Origin: a virus
Taxonomy: Duplodnaviria > Caudoviricetes
Reading direction: 5' to 3' (one strand)
Length of the DNA: 64,000 bases
Virus record (IMG/VR): IMGVR_UViG_2684623126_000004
Shown piece after piece: positions 973 through 60,481 of this stretch. A program made the translations under genes and the position numbers. The notes under the pieces were generated by a model, which saw only the letters and a program-made list of their open reading frames with translations, made no database searches and was not told the DNA's origin. How positions within the stretch are numbered: the stretch's first letter is position 1; the number at the start of each line of letters is the position of its first letter.

Positions 973-2265
973 TTGGCAAAACTCACGCACCTGTTGAATG
1001 ACATCCAGATTAGGAACTGGGTGTCGAAAGGCGAAGCCATCGCGCGCTCTGATGGCGATGGCCTCACCTTCACCCTGTCCGACGCCGGCACGGCGACATG
1101 GATCCTTCGCTACCGCATCGGCAAAGGCCGCCGGCGCGAACTCACCATCGGGAACTACCCCGATGTTTCCCTGGCCTCCGCACGCGAGAAGGCCCGCGTC
1201 GCCCGCGTTGCCATCGACGAGGGCCGCGACCCGGCTATCGAAAAGCAAGAAGAAAAGAACCGGGTGCAGGCCGCGTGGAGCGTGCGCGACCTGATCGCCG
1301 ACTACAGGGAAAAGTGTCTGCTGCTCACCGAGTACGCCCAGGACACCATCGACTACCGAAACCGCGACTACGACCAAATCATCATCCCCTACATCGGCGC
1401 GCGCCCCGTGCAGCGCGTCACGGCCATCGACATCGTGTCGATGCTCACCGACTGCAAACGCACCTGGACAGTATCGAAGCGCATCCTCACCTCTGCATCC
1501 AAGCTGTTCGACCATGCCTGCGGCCTGAAAATCATCGCCGCCAATCCCTGCACTGGCGTCAAGCTGAAGTCCATCAAGGGGCCGCGCCCGCCCATCCGAA
1601 AGCGCGTCATGCTGCTGGAAGAAGAGCTGCGCGAACTGCTGCCCGACATCGACTTCATCGGCGTGGAGAACGCCTACGCCTTCCGCATTCTGCTGGCAAC
1701 GTGCGTGCGCGGCGTCGAGCTGGTGAAGGCCAAGAAAGCGCATATCTTCCTTGACCTGGGTATGTGGTGGATACCAGACGAATCGGTGAAGACCCGCCGG
1801 GGCTTCCTCGTGCCCCTCACGCCCGTGGTGGTCGAGTGGTTCCGCGCCCTGTTTGAAATGTCTGGGGAATCCATCTACGTGCTGCCCGCGCGCCAAGAGC
1901 GCCGGCGCCGCAACAAGGGCGGCGATACCCACGTCGGGGAAACGACCCTCTGGGCGGCCATCCGCCGCGCCTTCGAGCGCAAGGACATCGAGATCCGCAA
2001 GTTCACCCCACACGATACCCGCTCAACGGCCAAGGGCCACCTGCGCAACATGGGCGTGTCGTGGGAAGAATCCGAGGTGGCGCTCAACCACAAGCTGGGC
2101 GAGCTGGACGAGATTTACGACGTGCGCGAGGAAAGGCCGGAGCGGCGCGAGGCGCTGGAAAAGTGGTGCGAGTTCATCGTGGCCTGCGAAACGGGCGCGC
2201 CCACGCCGGCGTTCGTCAAGCCAACACAGAGCAGCAACGTCATCCGCCTGTTGTCAGCCGCCTAG
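973..2265 (+). CDS. int: Tyrosine recombinase/integrase with N-terminal arm DNA-binding domain (P4-type)
   Basis: TTG start after GGAGG; N-terminal DGDGL...WILRYR...LTIGNYPDVSLASAR; catalytic R (TCVRGVE), HDTR, LNH, YD. Confidence 0.93.
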   Translation: MAKLTHLLNDIQIRNWVSKGEAIARSDGDGLTFTLSDAGTATWILRYRIGKGRRRELTIGNYPDVSLASAREKARVARVAIDEGRDPAIEKQEEKNRVQAAWSVRDLIADYREKCLLLTEYAQDTIDYRNRDYDQIIIPYIGARPVQRVTAIDIVSMLTDCKRTWTVSKRILTSASKLFDHACGLKIIAANPCTGVKLKSIKGPRPPIRKRVMLLEEELRELLPDIDFIGVENAYAFRILLATCVRGVELVKAKKAHIFLDLGMWWIPDESVKTRRGFLVPLTPVVVEWFRALFEMSGESIYVLPARQERRRRNKGGDTHVGETTLWAAIRRAFERKDIEIRKFTPHDTRSTAKGHLRNMGVSWEESEVALNHKLGELDEIYDVREERPERREALEKWCEFIVACETGAPTPAFVKPTQSSNVIRLLSAA

Positions 2266-3318
2266 CATGAGCTTGTCGGGGATGTCGCGCAGGCCGGGCA
2301 CCAGCACCAGATCACCCAACACGCCTTCAACGGTGCGGTGGGCGTTGCAATGCTTGGCGTAGGCGAGGAACGACATCACGCGCTGGCGCACGTCGGGTAG
2401 ATCGACCTCGCCGGCGAAATACTGGGTCATGAGCCGGCGGAAGTCAGCGCGGGCGCGCTTGATATTGCGCTTGCGCGGGAGGATATGCGTCGGCCAGATG
2501 CGGTAGCCGCAAAAGTCCACGCCGCGCTGCCACGGGTGAATCGCGGTCTTCGGGTTGAGCGACAGGCCCAGGCTATTGACGACCTTTTCCAGGGCCTGTA
2601 GCACGCGCTGGGCTTCAGCCTTGCCCTGCACCACCACCACGAAGTCGTCCATGTACCGCACGTAGAAGCGCAGGCCCATGTCGTCCTTGGCGATGTGATC
2701 GAGGCGGTTCAACAAGACGTTCGCCGCGAGCTGGCTGGTCAGCGCACCGACTGGCAGGCCCAGCCCGGCCTCGTGGCCGTATCCGCTGATGATTTGCCGC
2801 CAGAGCCAGAGCACGCCAGGATCCGAAATGACCCGCTCCACCTCGTCCATGAGAATGTGATGCTGGATGCTGGCGAAATACTTGCTGATGTCCGCCTTCA
2901 CCACATAGATGTCGTCGCCCCAGTTCCGCTTCGCCACGCGCAGGAAGTGCTGCACGCGCATGACGGCGCGCTGGGTGCCTTTGCCCTCGCGGCAAGCGTA
3001 GCTGTCGTAAATGAACCGGCGCTCGAAGTGCGGCTCCACGACCTGCACCAGCGCATGGTGAACGACGCGATCTTGAAATGGTGGCGCCTGAATCAGGCGT
3101 AGCTTGGGCTCGCGCACCACGAACTCGCGTTGCGGGCCGGGCTTCCAAGTCTTCCAGAGCATGTGATTCTGGATGTTGAAGAGGTGCTCTTCAGCCTCTA
3201 CCGCGAACTGCATTACCTCGTTGCGATACCGCTTTCCATCGCGGGCGCCCATGTAGGCCAGGTGCAGATTTTCAAAGGAGGTGAGTTCGTCCCAAAGACC
3301 ATTCACAGTGCGCGGCAT
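2254..3318 (-). CDS. DGR reverse transcriptase (bRT-like), 354 aa
   Basis: RT motifs FQDRVVH, GLPVGALTSQ (DGR-type [LIV]GxxxSQ), YVRYMDDF, GVDFCGY; no maturase or endonuclease domain; adjacent to TR and avd. Confidence 0.95.
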   Translation of the reverse strand: MPRTVNGLWDELTSFENLHLAYMGARDGKRYRNEVMQFAVEAEEHLFNIQNHMLWKTWKPGPQREFVVREPKLRLIQAPPFQDRVVHHALVQVVEPHFERRFIYDSYACREGKGTQRAVMRVQHFLRVAKRNWGDDIYVVKADISKYFASIQHHILMDEVERVISDPGVLWLWRQIISGYGHEAGLGLPVGALTSQLAANVLLNRLDHIAKDDMGLRFYVRYMDDFVVVVQGKAEAQRVLQALEKVVNSLGLSLNPKTAIHPWQRGVDFCGYRIWPTHILPRKRNIKRARADFRRLMTQYFAGEVDLPDVRQRVMSFLAYAKHCNAHRTVEGVLGDLVLVPGLRDIPDKLMLGG

Positions 3319-3478
3319 GTCTTCCTATTCAGTGTGGTCGGGTGCTGCCACGTCCGCCGGTTTCCCGGCTACTGGCCGCAGCGCCCTGTTCATCTTCGAC
3401 AACATGGTCAGGACAAAGGCCCCAAAGGATATGCACTGGACGGCGGCCCGTGGGCCGCGCGCCTTCTGGCACTATTCG
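3319..3478 (-). ncRNA. DGR TR-RT spacer (3' part of template RNA) with GCGGCCC-AC-GGGCCGC hairpin at 3443-3458
   Basis: Non-coding stretch between TR and RT start; perfect inverted repeat; position matches the spacer needed for priming in characterised DGRs. Confidence 0.7.
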
Positions 3479-3585
3479 TTTGCGAGGCGACCGCCGATAT
3501 TCGTGTTGACGTTCGACGCGGGATTGTTGACGTTCAGGCAGAAGAGCCCGTCGTTCGCGCCGTTGTCCCAATTGCCGCCGTTATA
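3479..3585 (-). repeat. DGR template repeat (TR), 107 nt, 10 AAC/AAT codons
   Basis: Minus strand TATAACGGCGGCAATTGGGACAACGGCGCGAAC...GGCGGTCGCCTCGCAAA; aligns without gaps to 4959-5065 and 60305-60411 with mismatches almost only at TR adenines. Confidence 0.97.
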
Positions 3586-3618: not shown

Positions 3619-3972
3619 CTACGACATGGCGGCTCCTTCGTGCTTGATCCACGCGCCGACCATGCGGCCAATTTCGTTCGTGTGTTTCATCCAGACTTCC
3701 AGGCGATGCGTGTTGATGTATTCGAGGCGATGGGCCTTGCGGATGAAGTGCCGGAACACCTCGATTTCCACGTCCAAGTCGAAAAGCGACGAAGCCTTCT
3801 GTCGGCGCTTCCACGCCACGACGGCCAGGCGGCATACCTTATTCATGGCCGCCCGCATTTCCGCGCAAAGCAAGTGCCTTTCCAGCTTCGGGAACTGATG
3901 CAGCACGGTATGCGTGTAGGCATCGAGCTCTTCCAACTTGGTGATGAGCTTCAGGTATGCGTCGTTTTTCAA
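3619..3972 (-). CDS. avd: DGR accessory variability determinant (Avd-like four-helix bundle)
   Basis: 117 aa, basic and helical; FPKLERHLL and EIGRMVGAW motifs; directly upstream of TR; TTG start overlaps upstream TGA. Confidence 0.92.
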   Translation of the reverse strand: MKNDAYLKLITKLEELDAYTHTVLHQFPKLERHLLCAEMRAAMNKVCRLAVVAWKRRQKASSLFDLDVEIEVFRHFIRKAHRLEYINTHRLEVWMKHTNEIGRMVGAWIKHEGAAMS

Positions 3973-4894: not shown

Positions 4895-4951
4895 GGGCGG
4901 CGCGCTTGGCGCGCTCGCCCAACTGCTACATGACACAGGTCACATGACCCA
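4895..4951 (-). promoter_or_regulatory. DGR target-recognition element 1: post-stop spacer (TGGGTCATGT...TGTGTCATGTA) plus bulged hairpin GGGCG-A-GCGCGC-CAA-GCGCGC-CGCCC (4895-4920)
   Basis: 31 nt downstream of VR1 stop; same architecture downstream of VR2. Confidence 0.85.
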
Positions 4952-7516
4952 TTACACCTTTGCGAGGCGACCGCCGAGACCCGTGCTGCCGCTCGACGCG
5001 GGACTGCCGACGCTCAGGCAGAAGAGCCCGTCGCCCGCGCCGCCGTCCCAATTGCCGCCGTGATAGGCGACGCAGTTCGCAGCCGACCAGAAGGCGTCCG
5101 CATACGTGCCGTTCGAGGCCGAAGCGTCGATGGTGGCGGGCAGGAACACTTGCGACAGGTCGTAGTTCGCGCCGGCATCCACGGACATCGTGACCGGGTA
5201 GGAGGCCGAAGCCGACGGCGCCACCTGGTTCGTGGTGATGTAGGTCTTGTTGCCCTGTTTGTCCCAGATTTTGTATTTCAGGCTGGCGTCGGTTTGCAGT
5301 CCATCGACCATCTGCCAGACGTTCGACCAGAGGCCGATAATGCCGCGCCACGAGGCTTGCGAGGTGGGCGACGCATCGACGTTGGTAGCGCCGGAACTGT
5401 TCGAGTTGCCTTGGCCGACCAAGGTCTGGGCGTCAGGGTTGCCCAGTTCGATGAGGGCCAGCATCTGGATGGCGGAGAGTTGGTAGATGTTCCACAGCGA
5501 GAAGCCCGTAACGCCCCCGGTGTTGCGCGCGTTCGCGCGGGCCTGCATCGTCGGGAAGTCGATGGAAACCAGCGGCCCGACGGCAGCCACGGACGCCAGC
5601 TTGTTGCCGGAGGCGTTCGAGCCCTGATACTTGCCGACCCAATACTGGGCCAGGTCAGCGCCGGCGTTCTTGAAAGCCGGGTGAATCTCGAAGCCGGTTT
5701 CCTTCTTGTCCGAAACCCAGATGGCCTTCTTTCCGACGTAGGCGCCGGACGCCACGATGCCGGTCTTGATGTAGAAGGCGGGCACCTTCACCATCGCCTG
5801 GCTGTCCAGGGTCTGATCGACGATACCGGCATAGGTCGGGTGGGCGTTGAAGAAGGCGGCATCGGTGGCCTTGGCGTTGCCGTCCTCGTCGATGCGTGCC
5901 CACGAACCGGAAGTCGCGCCAGTCGAAACCAGAGCGATACCGATCACCGTGCCGAAAATCTTTTTCGTAGTGAACTTCGTCTCCACCGACCATTCCGACC
6001 AGCCGATGGTTGCGCCCTTGTGGCGGACGCGCCAGAAGTATTGCGTGTTCGAGGACTTCAGCAGGCCGGCAGGAACGGCCAGCGAGGTCAGATGCGTGGC
6101 GTCCTCGCCGCTGTCGTAGGTGGAGGCGTCGTAGGACGCGCTGGCCTCGCGGATTTGCCATTGGGCCGCCGCTTGGGTGTCCGCACCCGCATAGACCGCG
6201 AAGGCGCTGGACGACAGCGTGGGCGTGTCGGCGACGTTGGTCAGGTTGTTGGCCGGGCCAACGTTCGACGGGGCCTGCACATACACGAACGACGCGGCGG
6301 TGGAGAACGAAACCGGGTCAGACCACGGCGACCACGCGCCTTCGGCGTCGCGCGCGCGGCCACGGGCGAAGTAGTCATGGCTGGTTTGCAGGCGCAGGCC
6401 GATTTCCTGCCAGGACAGGCCGCCCACCTGCGTGCCGCTGTCGATGATGACCTCGGCGAAGTCGGCGGTGGCGGAGACTTGGAATTGCACGGCGCCCACG
6501 GGCGTATCGGTGGGCGAAACGTAGCCGGTCAGGCCCAGCGTCGGGCGGTCGGTCAGGTTTTCAGCGCCATCGACGGGGTTGGACATGGCAGGCTTGAGCG
6601 GAGGCGTGTGCGTGCCGCGCAGGCCCGTGGTGGAGCCCAGGCCAATGATGTGCTGGATCTCGGTATTGCCAGCGCCGCCCACGACGGTCACGCGCAGCGC
6701 GGTGTCGCCATTGACGAGCAATTCGTACTCGCAGTCGATGTAGCCCGCCGGCACTTTGCCGCCTTCGCGCGTCCATGCCAGCGGCGCGGACACCCAGTCG
6801 CCATCGATCAGAAAATCGACGTTCACAACGGATGCGGTGGGCGTGCGGCGGATTACGACGGCGCGCTTGACGCCATCGAAGCCCAGATTGATGGGCTTGG
6901 AGAAGTAGGCCGCGCCCGGCTTGGCCTGCGCGGTGCCGTTAGCGACGGCAAACGAGGTGCGCGCGAGGAACGCGCCGGCGCCGCCGTAGGCGTTTGCCAG
7001 CGGGTCAGAAATGCGGATGCGGGTGCCGTTCAGCACAGCATTGACATGAACCTGCTCGGCGTGCGTCGCGTTGTAGATGACATAGTTCTGGCCGGGCGTG
7101 AAGAAGCTGCTGTCGGTCACGTCGATGGAATCGTCGCCGGCGACGGCAGAGGTCACGGCGATGGGCTGCGTGTCGGTCAGCGTGTATTCGCCGGCCCACA
7201 TTTCAAGGCTGATGTTGTTGCCCGAATAGTCCCAGTCCAGGCGCACCGCACGCGCCAGCATGGGCGCGGTCATGCCCTGCAAGTCGCCGATGTCGCCGCC
7301 CAGGTCTGCGACGGCCTGCGCCACCTGGTTCATCTTTTCGGCGAAGGTGGGCGCATCGCCCTTGGCGGCGTTCAGCTCGTCTTCGACGCTCACCTGGCGC
7401 TCGTCGAGGGCGGAGAAGTTCTCGTCGATTTCCTGGTAGCGCGTGTTCCACAGCGAGGGGACGGCATCCGGCTCGTTGTTCGGAATCGGCGTGATGTTTT
7501 GGTTGGGCAGGGACAT
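4952..7516 (-). CDS. Tail fibre/receptor-binding protein, 854 aa, with two FN3-like repeats and a C-terminal C-type-lectin-like domain; DGR target 1
   Basis: ATG at 7516 after GAAAGGAG; last gene of baseplate operon before chaperone; tandem W-S-x-W-S beta-sandwich repeats; C-terminus YHGGNW...GGRLAKV is VR1. Confidence 0.9.
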   Translation of the reverse strand: MSLPNQNITPIPNNEPDAVPSLWNTRYQEIDENFSALDERQVSVEDELNAAKGDAPTFAEKMNQVAQAVADLGGDIGDLQGMTAPMLARAVRLDWDYSGNNISLEMWAGEYTLTDTQPIAVTSAVAGDDSIDVTDSSFFTPGQNYVIYNATHAEQVHVNAVLNGTRIRISDPLANAYGGAGAFLARTSFAVANGTAQAKPGAAYFSKPINLGFDGVKRAVVIRRTPTASVVNVDFLIDGDWVSAPLAWTREGGKVPAGYIDCEYELLVNGDTALRVTVVGGAGNTEIQHIIGLGSTTGLRGTHTPPLKPAMSNPVDGAENLTDRPTLGLTGYVSPTDTPVGAVQFQVSATADFAEVIIDSGTQVGGLSWQEIGLRLQTSHDYFARGRARDAEGAWSPWSDPVSFSTAASFVYVQAPSNVGPANNLTNVADTPTLSSSAFAVYAGADTQAAAQWQIREASASYDASTYDSGEDATHLTSLAVPAGLLKSSNTQYFWRVRHKGATIGWSEWSVETKFTTKKIFGTVIGIALVSTGATSGSWARIDEDGNAKATDAAFFNAHPTYAGIVDQTLDSQAMVKVPAFYIKTGIVASGAYVGKKAIWVSDKKETGFEIHPAFKNAGADLAQYWVGKYQGSNASGNKLASVAAVGPLVSIDFPTMQARANARNTGGVTGFSLWNIYQLSAIQMLALIELGNPDAQTLVGQGNSNSSGATNVDASPTSQASWRGIIGLWSNVWQMVDGLQTDASLKYKIWDKQGNKTYITTNQVAPSASASYPVTMSVDAGANYDLSQVFLPATIDASASNGTYADAFWSAANCVAYHGGNWDGGAGDGLFCLSVGSPASSGSTGLGGRLAKV
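4959..5065 (-). repeat. DGR variable region VR1
   Basis: Versus TR: 14 substitutions at adenines (12 A>G, 2 A>C) and one T>G. Confidence 0.96.
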
Positions 7517-7530
7517 GGGGGGAGCTCCTT

Positions 7531-7917
7531 TCAGAATCGCATCTTCAGATTGACGCCATAGGTTTCCCCGTTCTCCAGGTACTTCGGCGCAAAGGTTTTC
7601 CAGCAAACAAGGTTGCCGTCGGTGTCGAGCAAGGCCGCCTCGGAGAGAGCGCCGGCATTGAGGTCGTCGGATTCGACGACGCCCTTCCCGGTGGCGGAAT
7701 ACAGGTCTTCTTGAACCAAGGCCGTGACGGGCTTGCGCTTGACCTCGTGGTAGAGGCCGGCGGCGCCGCTGTCGGCGGGCTTGGCGGTGTTGTCGGGGTT
7801 GTGGCCACCGTCGCCGTAGGCGATGAATGCGATGGGCTTGAGTACGCCAGTGCCGGCCATGTGGGCGGCGACGCGGCGGCGGTAGCTATCGGCGACTACG
7901 GCTTCGGGCACGGTCAC
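7531..7917 (-). CDS. Tail-collar/fibre attachment protein (position of P1 gene R)
   Basis: IAYGDGG and LSEAALLD motifs of collar-type proteins; GTGA overlap with upstream gene. Confidence 0.65.
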   Translation of the reverse strand: MTVPEAVVADSYRRRVAAHMAGTGVLKPIAFIAYGDGGHNPDNTAKPADSGAAGLYHEVKRKPVTALVQEDLYSATGKGVVESDDLNAGALSEAALLDTDGNLVCWKTFAPKYLENGETYGVNLKMRF

Positions 7918-59122: not shown

Positions 59123-59198
59123 TGCGGCGTAGAGCAGTTGGCAGCTCGCCGGCTTCATAAGCCGGAGGTCGCTGGTTCGATTCCAGCCGCCGCTACCA
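59123..59198 (+). tRNA. tRNA-Met(CAT), initiator-like scaffold, encoded CCA
   Basis: Full cloverleaf; 1:72 mismatch (U:U), A11:U24, anticodon loop TTCATAA, TTCGATT T-loop. Confidence 0.93.
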
Positions 59199-59443
59199 CC
59201 TTCCGACCCCACTGACAGGCTGGACTGGGAATCAAACCGGGCGCATGTCTGTTCGACCAGCCGGAGGTCGTGGAAACCGGAACGAAAGCGGATGCTGGCC
59301 TGGGATTGCTTCGGCGGTCGTGCGCAGCCAGACGCAGCGAGTAGGACGCGAGCCTGAACGCGCACAGGCCCATGCCGGACATGGTGAAAGCCGGAATCCC
59401 GCTCCTGCCCATCAAGCACCCCATCAACGCAAAGGACATCAAC

Positions 59444-60418
59444 ATGAGCCAAATCGGCATCGTCTTCGGCAAAAAGCACGCGCCCTGGACGCGCATCGAC
59501 AACAGCGGCGCCATCGTCACCCCGGACGCCAGCTTCTTCAGTAACCACCCGACCTTCGCCGGCATCGCCGACGAGGAAATCGACGGCCAGAGCATGGTGC
59601 GCGTGCCGGCCTTCTACTACCGCTCCGACATCGTGCGCGACGGCCCGCTGCTGGGCAAGAAGGCGCTCTGGGTGAGCGACGAACCCGCCGAAGGCTACGC
59701 GCTGCATCCGGCCTTCCGCAACAACGGCGCCGACCTCGCGCAATACTGGCTGGGCAAGTACCAGGGCACGCCGGACGGCGACGACAAGCTGGGCTCGCAA
59801 GCCGGCCTGATGCCGCTGGCACGCATCGACTTCCCCACCATGCAGGCGCGCGCCGCCGCGCGCGGCGAGGGCTGGATGTTGTGGAGCATTTACCAGCTCG
59901 CGGCCATCCAGGCGCTGGCGCTGATCGAGTGCGGCACGCCCAACGTCAAGTCCATCCTGGGCGAGGGCTACATCGACGGAAACGGCGTGCGCAAGGTCGA
60001 TGACGCCGAGGTGGTGCAGGCGGCCTACCGGGGCATCACGGGCCTCTGGGGCAACGTCTGGCAGATGCTGGACGGCTTGCAGACCGGCGCGAACCGCGAG
60101 TTCCTCATCTGGGACAAGGACGGCCACCGCAACCTGCTCAATACTGGCATCGAAGCGCCGGAGCATGGCTGGATCCACAAGCGCCTGCGCAACGTCGGCG
60201 AGGGATTCGACCTGGGTGCGGCGTTCGTGCCCAAGAAGACCCGCGACGAGCAAGAGGACGCGGCCTACGGCAACTACTCGTGGTTCTGGTCTGGCGGCGT
60301 GGCGTACCACGGCGGCAATTGGGGCGACGGCGCGGCCGGCGGGCTCTTCTGCCTGTACGTCTACAGTCCCGCGTCGCACGTCAGCACGACTGTCGGCGGT
60401 CGCCTCGCAAAGGTGTAA
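59444..60418 (+). CDS. Stand-alone C-type-lectin-like protein, 324 aa, paralogue of the tail fibre C-terminal domain; DGR target 2
   Basis: ATG after AAAGGA; shares HPxFAGI, MVxVPAFY, HPAFxNxGADLAQYWxGKYQG, IDFPTMQARA, GIxGLWxNVWQM with the fibre; ends in VR2. Confidence 0.92.
   Translation: MSQIGIVFGKKHAPWTRIDNSGAIVTPDASFFSNHPTFAGIADEEIDGQSMVRVPAFYYRSDIVRDGPLLGKKALWVSDEPAEGYALHPAFRNNGADLAQYWLGKYQGTPDGDDKLGSQAGLMPLARIDFPTMQARAAARGEGWMLWSIYQLAAIQALALIECGTPNVKSILGEGYIDGNGVRKVDDAEVVQAAYRGITGLWGNVWQMLDGLQTGANREFLIWDKDGHRNLLNTGIEAPEHGWIHKRLRNVGEGFDLGAAFVPKKTRDEQEDAAYGNYSWFWSGGVAYHGGNWGDGAAGGLFCLYVYSPASHVSTTVGGRLAKV
60305..60411 (+). repeat. DGR variable region VR2
   Basis: Versus TR: 13 substitutions at adenines (7 A>G, 4 A>C, 2 A>T) plus one silent T>C at the 5' edge. 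Confidence 0.96.
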
Positions 60419-60481
60419 TGGGTCATGTCGGCATGTGTCATGTATCCGGGCGAGCCTGCCGAGCAGGCCGCCCGGTTTTTT
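60419..60481 (+). promoter_or_regulatory. DGR target-recognition element 2: spacer plus hairpin GGGCG-A-GCCTGC-CGA-GCAGGC-CGCCC (60448-60473), with U-tract so it may also terminate
   Basis: Same architecture as 4895-4951; stem extends by CC/GG and is followed by T6. Confidence 0.85.

Follow-up and report, generated by a model that had tools for sequence, protein, structure and literature searches.

The BPP-1 target signal combines a (GC)14 element, a 21-bp IMH, and a hairpin or cruciform (Guo et al. 2011, PMC3240598), and the GC-rich element, the IMH, and the hairpin are together sufficient to target a foreign gene (PMC3240598). Within the hairpin, the stem acts through its structure and not its sequence, and the loop acts through both size and sequence (PMC3240598). 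Deletion of the stem-loop lowers editing without abolishing it, and there is a preference for having the cDNA-pairing target strand as lagging-strand template (PMC12875486). In one model built on BPP-1, the cDNA carries an RNA primer that may base-pair with the IMH (Naorem 2017, PMC5703328); the route by which DGR cDNA locates and replaces its target has yet to be settled (PMC5703328, PMC12875486).

The published rule for the hairpin is an uninterrupted, GC-rich stem of 7–10 bp with a 4-nt GRNA loop (PMC3240598), which MyDGR reuses (PMC6602519), and published distances of the hairpin from the VR run from 4 to 34 bp. A different loop has been described for the hairpins of the DUSEL4 Nanoarchaeota DGRs, which carry trinucleotide GRA loops (Paul et al. 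2015, PMC4372165). Inverted repeats have been reported in only 34% of DGRs (PMC5758913).

We analyzed a 64,000-nt stretch of prophage DNA (IMG/VR record IMGVR_UViG_2684623126_000004), hereafter the window, which carries a complete DGR—reverse transcriptase (RT), bAvd, and template repeat (TR)—serving two target genes. The cassette occupies the minus strand within the first 7.6 kb. The RT gene (2254–3318, minus strand; Pfam RVT_1, E = 6.7e-27) encodes a protein 35–46% identical to phage DGR RTs and 40–90% identical to the RTs of 80 viral loci surveyed below. Upstream of the RT start, at a distance of 160 nt, is the TR (3479–3582, minus strand), which is the adenine-rich repeat copy; the 160-nt TR–RT spacer between them (3319–3478, minus strand), presumed part of the DGR RNA, shows just a weak 6-bp stem (z = 0.25). 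The bAvd accessory protein (Pfam PF22296, E = 3.9e-24) is encoded at 3619–3972 on the same strand.

Target gene 1 (4952–7606, minus strand) is an ORF for an 884-aa, tail-fibre-like protein with an Ig-like domain; its stop codon occupies 4952–4954, and its VR1 (4959–5062, minus strand) comprises 104 coding bases ahead of a short constant tail. Target gene 2 (59372–60418, plus strand) encodes 348 aa, ends with a stop codon at 60416–60418, and lies ~55 kb from the RT, with VR2 at 60308–60411 (plus strand). The last 344 aa of target 1 are 48% identical to target 2, an alignment that spans the full length of the shorter protein. About 180 nt ahead of target 2 there is a tRNA gene (59123–59195; Rfam, 65.7 bits). 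The two targets of this single TR sit on opposite strands ~55 kb apart (4895–5062, minus; 60308–60475, plus); at most one of them can take the favoured lagging-strand orientation (PMC12875486) during passive prophage replication.

Mismatches between the TR and the VRs fall at TR adenines in 13 of 13 cases for VR2 and in 14 of 15 for VR1. The sole VR1 mismatch away from adenine is a T-to-G change at a TR thymine, at about window position 4989. The repeats share a GC-rich end of 17 nt that is identical in the TR and both VRs (3479–3495, 4959–4975, and 60395–60411) and has exactly three copies genome-wide, corresponding to the one TR and the two VRs. TR–VR homology stops at this end, 7 nt before the stop codon.

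Past each stop codon, a short spacer leads to a hairpin. The target-1 hairpin or cruciform (4895–4920, minus strand) is 26 nt long and consists of 5 bp, a bulged A, 6 bp, and a CAA loop. The target-2 hairpin (60446–60475, plus strand) has a 26-nt core (60448–60473) with the same 5 bp, bulged A, and 6 bp, a CGA loop, and two extra outer pairs. Six T follow the target-2 hairpin directly on its 3′ side, and the target-1 hairpin has no T tract. Two base pairs of the inner stem differ between the copies, with both partners replaced in each case, and a single base distinguishes the loops; four of the five differences between the hairpins are compensatory. Folded in isolation as single-stranded DNA, the two hairpins reach −14.5 and −16.5 kcal/mol (z = −4.7 and −6.0), values equaled by none of 200 shuffles.

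The intervening spacers are IMH-like and carry periodic HTG boxes. That of target 1 (4921–4951, minus strand; 31 nt) has three boxes 7 nt apart, and that of target 2 (60419–60447, plus strand; 29 nt) has three boxes 8 and 7 nt apart. A 7-nt box occurs twice in each spacer (4942–4948 and 4928–4934 for target 1, minus strand; 60422–60428 and 60437–60443 for target 2, plus strand), and these two boxes, the ones noticed at the outset, correspond to the first and third of the three. The hairpins begin 36–38 nt past the end of TR–VR homology and about 5–8 nt past the last box, a gap that spans 3–8 nt across relatives.

The 7-mer by itself is not rare: the window holds 9 copies against 5.0 expected, and 8 of 100 shuffles reach 9. 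Pairs of the box no more than 12 nt apart give 5 matches in the 6.17-Mb host genome, two of them mutually overlapping, and two of the 5 are the VR sites. We also scanned this genome for hairpins with a C-G-closed CRA triloop on a two-tier stem. Among 8 loose matches, an upper stem of at least 6 bp combined with a lower stem of at least 5 bp is found only in the two VR hairpins. The same scan rules out a host repeat of the REP-like kind, as there is no other close copy. A search after the window TR found no comparable hairpin or boxes beyond the weak stem noted above, and neither hairpin site matches an Rfam family.

Conservation between the two targets is concentrated in this block. Spacer and hairpin are 78% identical between targets, versus 58–63% for the coding DNA upstream of the VRs, and identity drops to 46%, the background level, in the 60 nt past the hairpin; conservation therefore stops precisely where the hairpin does, at its 3′ edge. 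Near-identical prophages add a view over a shorter distance. Relative to the window, their 296 nt upstream of VR1 contain 3–4 base differences, the 150 nt running from the VR1 constant tail through spacer and hairpin contain none, and the 104-nt VR1 itself contains 19–24, mostly at TR adenine positions. VR2 shows the same pattern, and both VRs appear to be undergoing diversification at present.

These results bear out the observation in the original prediction and part of its interpretation. The prediction had placed twin boxes and a 26-nt bulged hairpin after both target stops, read the inner-stem differences as compensatory, and proposed current selection on both targets. Boxes and hairpins are present behind spacers of 29–31 nt, both partners of two inner pairs have changed, and covariation is also seen across 45 distinct relatives. 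Spacer and hairpin behave as a selected unit tied to the VRs, given their conservation relative to the DNA on either side, and both VRs look currently active from the adenine-specific mismatches and from near-identical relatives that differ almost only within the VR.

Relatives were collected blind to the downstream DNA, with the protein C-terminus as the query in genomes and the 22-nt VR coding end as the query in viral and metagenome contigs. These searches returned 56 distinct downstream sequences, 45 of which carry a CAA (20) or CGA (25) triloop hairpin whose closing pair is always C-G. On a plain MAFFT alignment of the 45, 90.5% of stem cells are paired, versus 38–48% with the partners slid. 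Both bases have changed in six of the pairs, and none of 500 shuffles reaches the observed covariation score. When the alignment is anchored on the stem interruption, the lower stem is 97% paired versus 64% in shuffles. Within the spacer, the invariant positions comprise the G in each of three TG dinucleotides, which recur at intervals of exactly 7 nt, together with the bases flanking the third box.

The interruption is itself a conserved feature, lying 5–8 bp from the loop in 43 of the 45 triloop relatives; the other two have uninterrupted stems of 10–12 bp. It is usually a 5′-arm bulge whose base varies (A, C/T, G, or two bases), and the variants include two one-by-one mismatches (A opposite G), one sequence scored as A opposite C in the anchored analysis (L035), and two 3′-arm bulges. 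The bulge persists while its base, its size, and even its arm change, which suggests selection for a two-tier stem and not for a particular nucleotide. The hairpin of this lineage can be summarized as a C-G-closed CRA loop on an upper helix of 5–8 bp, an interruption usually in the sense-strand 5′ arm, and a lower helix of 3–7 bp.

The remaining downstream sequences depart from this form in several ways. Six with the same VR end have perfect stems of 8–12 bp and GRNA-type loops (GAAA, GATA, GGTA, or GACA), and in one (L014) a GATA loop sits on a weak 7-bp stem that contains a mismatch. No hairpin follows three anchor-bearing copies, of which at least one serves its own element as TR; in this copy, similarity to the VR covers the stop codon and the first box and is then lost. 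Of the three, L055 and L082 lie on short contigs. Across relatives, the spacer–hairpin block is unchanged whatever comes next, be it an RBS and gene, a separate terminator, or other genes. Where no close gene follows, four relatives (L060, L032, L017, and L063) have a second, separate GC-rich hairpin past the DGR hairpin, with a short T-rich tail in L060 and L032.

An RT-anchored survey placed these forms in a wider context. It covered 80 viral loci (L103–L182) with RTs 40–90% identical to that of the window and recovered TR/VR pairs in 65. Hairpin class tracks RT relatedness: RTs at least 63% identical to the window RT accompany CRA triloops, with interrupted stems in 21 of 23. A sister group with RTs 54–59% identical (L134, L136, L140, L142, L143, and L147) has CGA triloops on perfect 8–9-bp stems, and more distant elements have GRNA tetraloops or, in a few cases, CGAG or CGAC tetraloops; 18 VR sites from 16 elements have no strong hairpin. 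The CGAG and CGAC tetraloops of L151, L156, and L158, which follow the VR and are C-G-closed, belong to neither the GRNA nor the CRA class, and tetraloops of this kind may be intermediates between loop classes.

A quick RT tree agrees with this grouping. It places 30 of 31 CRA rows in one clade of 34 rows (support 99), which also includes four tetraloop rows, and confines interrupted stems to a subclade of 23 rows (support 94), 21 of them interrupted. Because RT and target are linked, the association of class with RT shows lineage specificity and not co-adaptation; inheritance alone would suffice.

The HTG boxes extend well beyond the triloop lineage. In RT-related DGRs, three periodic HTG boxes are found in 40 of 57 distinct VR-downstream 40-mers versus 1 of 57 TR-downstream ones, with 1.9 predicted by shuffles, and elements lacking a GC hairpin often have four or five boxes. 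An array of at least three boxes 7–8 nt apart, with a hairpin 3–8 nt later, also follows the targets of distant phage DGRs that have GRNA hairpins, namely Aeromonas phiWae15, Vibrio ZX4290 and VP58.5, Bacillus BalMu-1, and Pseudoalteromonas ACA1; the array pattern is present in Faecalibacterium Lagaffe too. The HTG array looks like a general recipient mark for the RT clade of the window.

Two individual loci illustrate the range of arrangements. In FP_Lagaffe (L102:5152–5226), three CTG boxes precede a 9-bp stem with a 7-nt loop whose 3′ part reads C-CAA-G, which hints that the CAA motif occurs outside the Burkholderiales-type lineage. In L077 (minus strand), two copies of the anchor lie about 530 nt apart: a VR with three boxes and a GAAA hairpin, and an adenine-rich TR. 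The L077 TR shares the stop codon and the first box with the VR, continues into an RBS and gene start, and has no hairpin. Retention of box 1 alone is a trait this TR has in common with that of BPP-1.

We next considered the BPP-1 pairing model through the longest exact complement between the TR-downstream spacer RNA and the IMH, a measure preferred over duplexfold, which is too noisy in GC-rich sequence. A BPP-1-type control behaved as the model describes (L091:2836–2979 against L091:2259–2285): the 9-nt stretch whose last base is the priming adenine A56 can pair with the IMH without a mismatch (P = 0.009), versus a complement of only 5 nt to IMH*. In the window, the longest complement between the spacer RNA and either IMH-like spacer is 5 nt (P about 0.98), so that no pairing is seen, and extending the RNA to span avd, TR, and spacer revealed no complement above chance. 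Among 55 surveyed loci, P fell below 0.05 in 3, and the test failed in 52. The pairing model may therefore hold for BPP-1 only, since neither the window nor 52 of the 55 related elements passes the same test.

The anatomy of the block, its conservation and covariation, its presence after VRs only, and the indications that both VRs are active point to one reading above others. On comparative evidence, we consider it highly probable that the spacer and hairpin after each stop codon act as a cis-acting DGR recipient signal, marking the two VRs, and not the TR, for mutagenized cDNA. The BPP-1 experiments together with the failed pairing test make a division of labor the most likely form of this reading, with boxes for directionality and the hairpin for access. 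The mechanism that we infer, including any role of the bulge or the loop sequence, would draw on three parts. The 17-nt GC-rich end common to TR and VRs is the likely 3′ junction of information transfer. The VR-only stretch with three HTG boxes 7–8 nt apart, in the position of the BPP-1 IMH, would by analogy with BPP-1 give directionality. The hairpin, on the same analogy, may raise homing efficiency by opening the target DNA or by holding it open, for example on the lagging-strand template.

A more general proposal is possible, and we advance it tentatively, thinking it rather less likely to be right than wrong. The recipient mark of the clade would be the array of at least three HTG boxes 7–8 nt apart, read by something other than base pairing of the spacer RNA (an RT–Avd complex or a host factor, for example), with the hairpin as an optional enhancer. 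Loop class (GRNA, CGAN, or CRA) and stem geometry (perfect or two-tier) would then be tuned per lineage, and the CRA triloop with its interrupted stem would constitute a distinct, possibly orthogonal address.

Other explanations have to account for the same block. A GC-rich stem just past a stop codon could work at the RNA level in the target transcript, as an intrinsic terminator or a 3′ stabilizer, and accompany the VR only because it closes the gene. The six T directly after the target-2 hairpin agree with this, that hairpin may also terminate transcription, and some DGR inverted repeats could double as terminators (PMC5758913). Across the family, however, a T-rich tail accompanies just 6 of 42 triloop hairpins, and most triloop hairpins have an RBS and the next gene within about 20 nt; after the target-1 hairpin, an RBS follows about 13 nt on and the ATG of the next gene about 22 nt on. 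Several relatives (L060, L032, L017, and L063) carry a separate terminator-like hairpin downstream, a consensus scan calls no terminator at either window site, and no Rfam family matches. A terminator or stabilizer would also leave the invariant loop and the VR-only boxes unexplained, and we judge this explanation very unlikely.

Short repeated boxes at a fixed period, along with the partly palindromic target-1 spacer, would also suit a protein operator or a promoter-proximal site that regulates the downstream gene and is unrelated to retrohoming. Yet the genes downstream of the two targets are unrelated, with 46% identity directly past the hairpin, and the array follows VRs in many phage lineages whatever the next gene, while it is missing after TRs; consensus scans call no sigma-70-like promoter. 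A regulatory site of this kind has, in our estimate, a very slim chance of being correct. The targets are moreover paralogues, 48% identical over 344 aa, so their shared flanks could be inherited and the block could be a neutral relic of the duplication that made them, kept without selection. Under that account it is difficult to see why a noncoding block (78%) should be better conserved than the coding DNA upstream (58–63%), why conservation should stop at the hairpin edge, why four of five hairpin differences should be compensatory, or why architecture and covariation should be kept in 45 distinct relatives. We regard a neutral relic as extremely improbable.

Read as a recipient signal, the block has consequences for both mechanism and annotation. 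The BPP-1 signal is the sole tested DGR target signal, and the window lineage offers a natural second design, with another loop, a conserved stem interruption, IMH-like boxes outside both ORF and TR, and no complementarity of the spacer RNA to them. Its main interest lies in the general box pattern and in the failure of the RNA-pairing model outside BPP-1. The periodic array is a concrete, mutable candidate for the directionality determinant. With one TR and two targets in different orientations, the element is also a compact system in which to test effects of strand and replication, and engineering could benefit from a second target signal, possibly an orthogonal one. A detection rule that accepts only GRNA tetraloops, as in MyDGR, would miss the CRA class and by itself may undercount hairpins, whatever criteria lay behind the reported 34% (PMC5758913). 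If the HTG array is the mark and the hairpin an optional enhancer, current DGR annotation rules would undercount hairpins because they accept GRNA tetraloops only.

Set beside BPP-1, the window signal shows the same order of parts: a GC-rich end common with the TR, VR-specific HTG boxes, a short gap, and a C-G-closed GC-rich inverted repeat. As in BPP-1, there is no hairpin after the TR, the stem can vary in sequence as long as its pairs are maintained, and variation in the loop is restricted. BPP-1-type DNA likewise runs from GC-rich end to IMH to a GAAA hairpin, and its 21-bp IMH (L091:2262–2282) contains comparable boxes at a looser spacing that fails a strict 7–8-nt test; three of the five IMH/IMH* differences in the BPP-1-type TR remove the middle box. 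A profile of the family spacers found nothing at the IMH of the BPP-1-type locus, and direct alignment of window spacer and BPP-1 IMH is weak (P = 0.067 for VR1; P = 0.002 for the best family member, uncorrected for 11 tests). In view of this weak profile and pairwise similarity, we claim equivalence of the boxes to the BPP-1 IMH in position and pattern, as distinct from proven homology.

The differences from BPP-1 concern the loop, the stem, and the placement of the boxes. The window loop has 3 nt (CAA or CGA) as opposed to the 4-nt GRNA of the BPP-1 type, and the stem has 11 bp in two tiers separated by a bulge, as opposed to 8 uninterrupted bp in BPP-1; both values lie outside the published GRNA and 7–10-bp ranges. 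Measured from the end of TR–VR homology, the distance of 36–38 nt is just past the published 4–34 bp; measured from the last box, which corresponds to the end of the BPP-1 IMH, it is about 5–8 nt. The boxes follow the stop codon in the window, whereas those of BPP-1 lie inside the ORF, and the window TR, unlike that of BPP-1, has no IMH*-like copy of them.

Closer and more remote systems share some of these traits. The sister DGRs (L134, L136, L140, L142, L143, and L147) share the loop and its C-G closing pair with the window lineage and have related boxes, but their stems are uninterrupted and they fall outside the 23-row subclade. The Nanoarchaeota DGRs likewise have target hairpins with a constrained 3-nt loop, whose middle base is R and whose final base is A. 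Their loop nevertheless starts with G where that of the window starts with C, their hairpins lie within the target ORF and not after the stop, no bulge has been described, and their archaeal lineage is unrelated to the window prophage. Group IIC introns, which target terminator stem-loops, provide a parallel among retroelements in that their landmark is a GC-rich DNA stem-loop downstream of a gene, with structure taking precedence over sequence (PMC3240598); there, however, the loop sequence matters little and a U tract follows, whereas in the window lineage the loop is invariant and most copies have no T tract.

These comparisons qualify the claim in the original prediction that the bulged stem, C(A/G)A triloop, and repeated spacer motif represent a different design. 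The published rule indeed excludes a 3-nt CRA loop and an interrupted stem, although DGR hairpins with trinucleotide loops were already known; the repeated spacer motif turns out to be a local spelling of a three-box array common to many related DGRs with GRNA hairpins. Our search of the literature, incomplete in coverage, found no description of CRA loops, a conserved stem interruption, or a periodic box array. The window signal thus shares the BPP-1 architecture while departing from published features in loop and stem, and the MyDGR rule (PMC6602519) would not find it. The comparison provides good support for regarding the CRA triloop with its interrupted stem as a lineage-specific variant of the published 7–10-bp GRNA hairpin.
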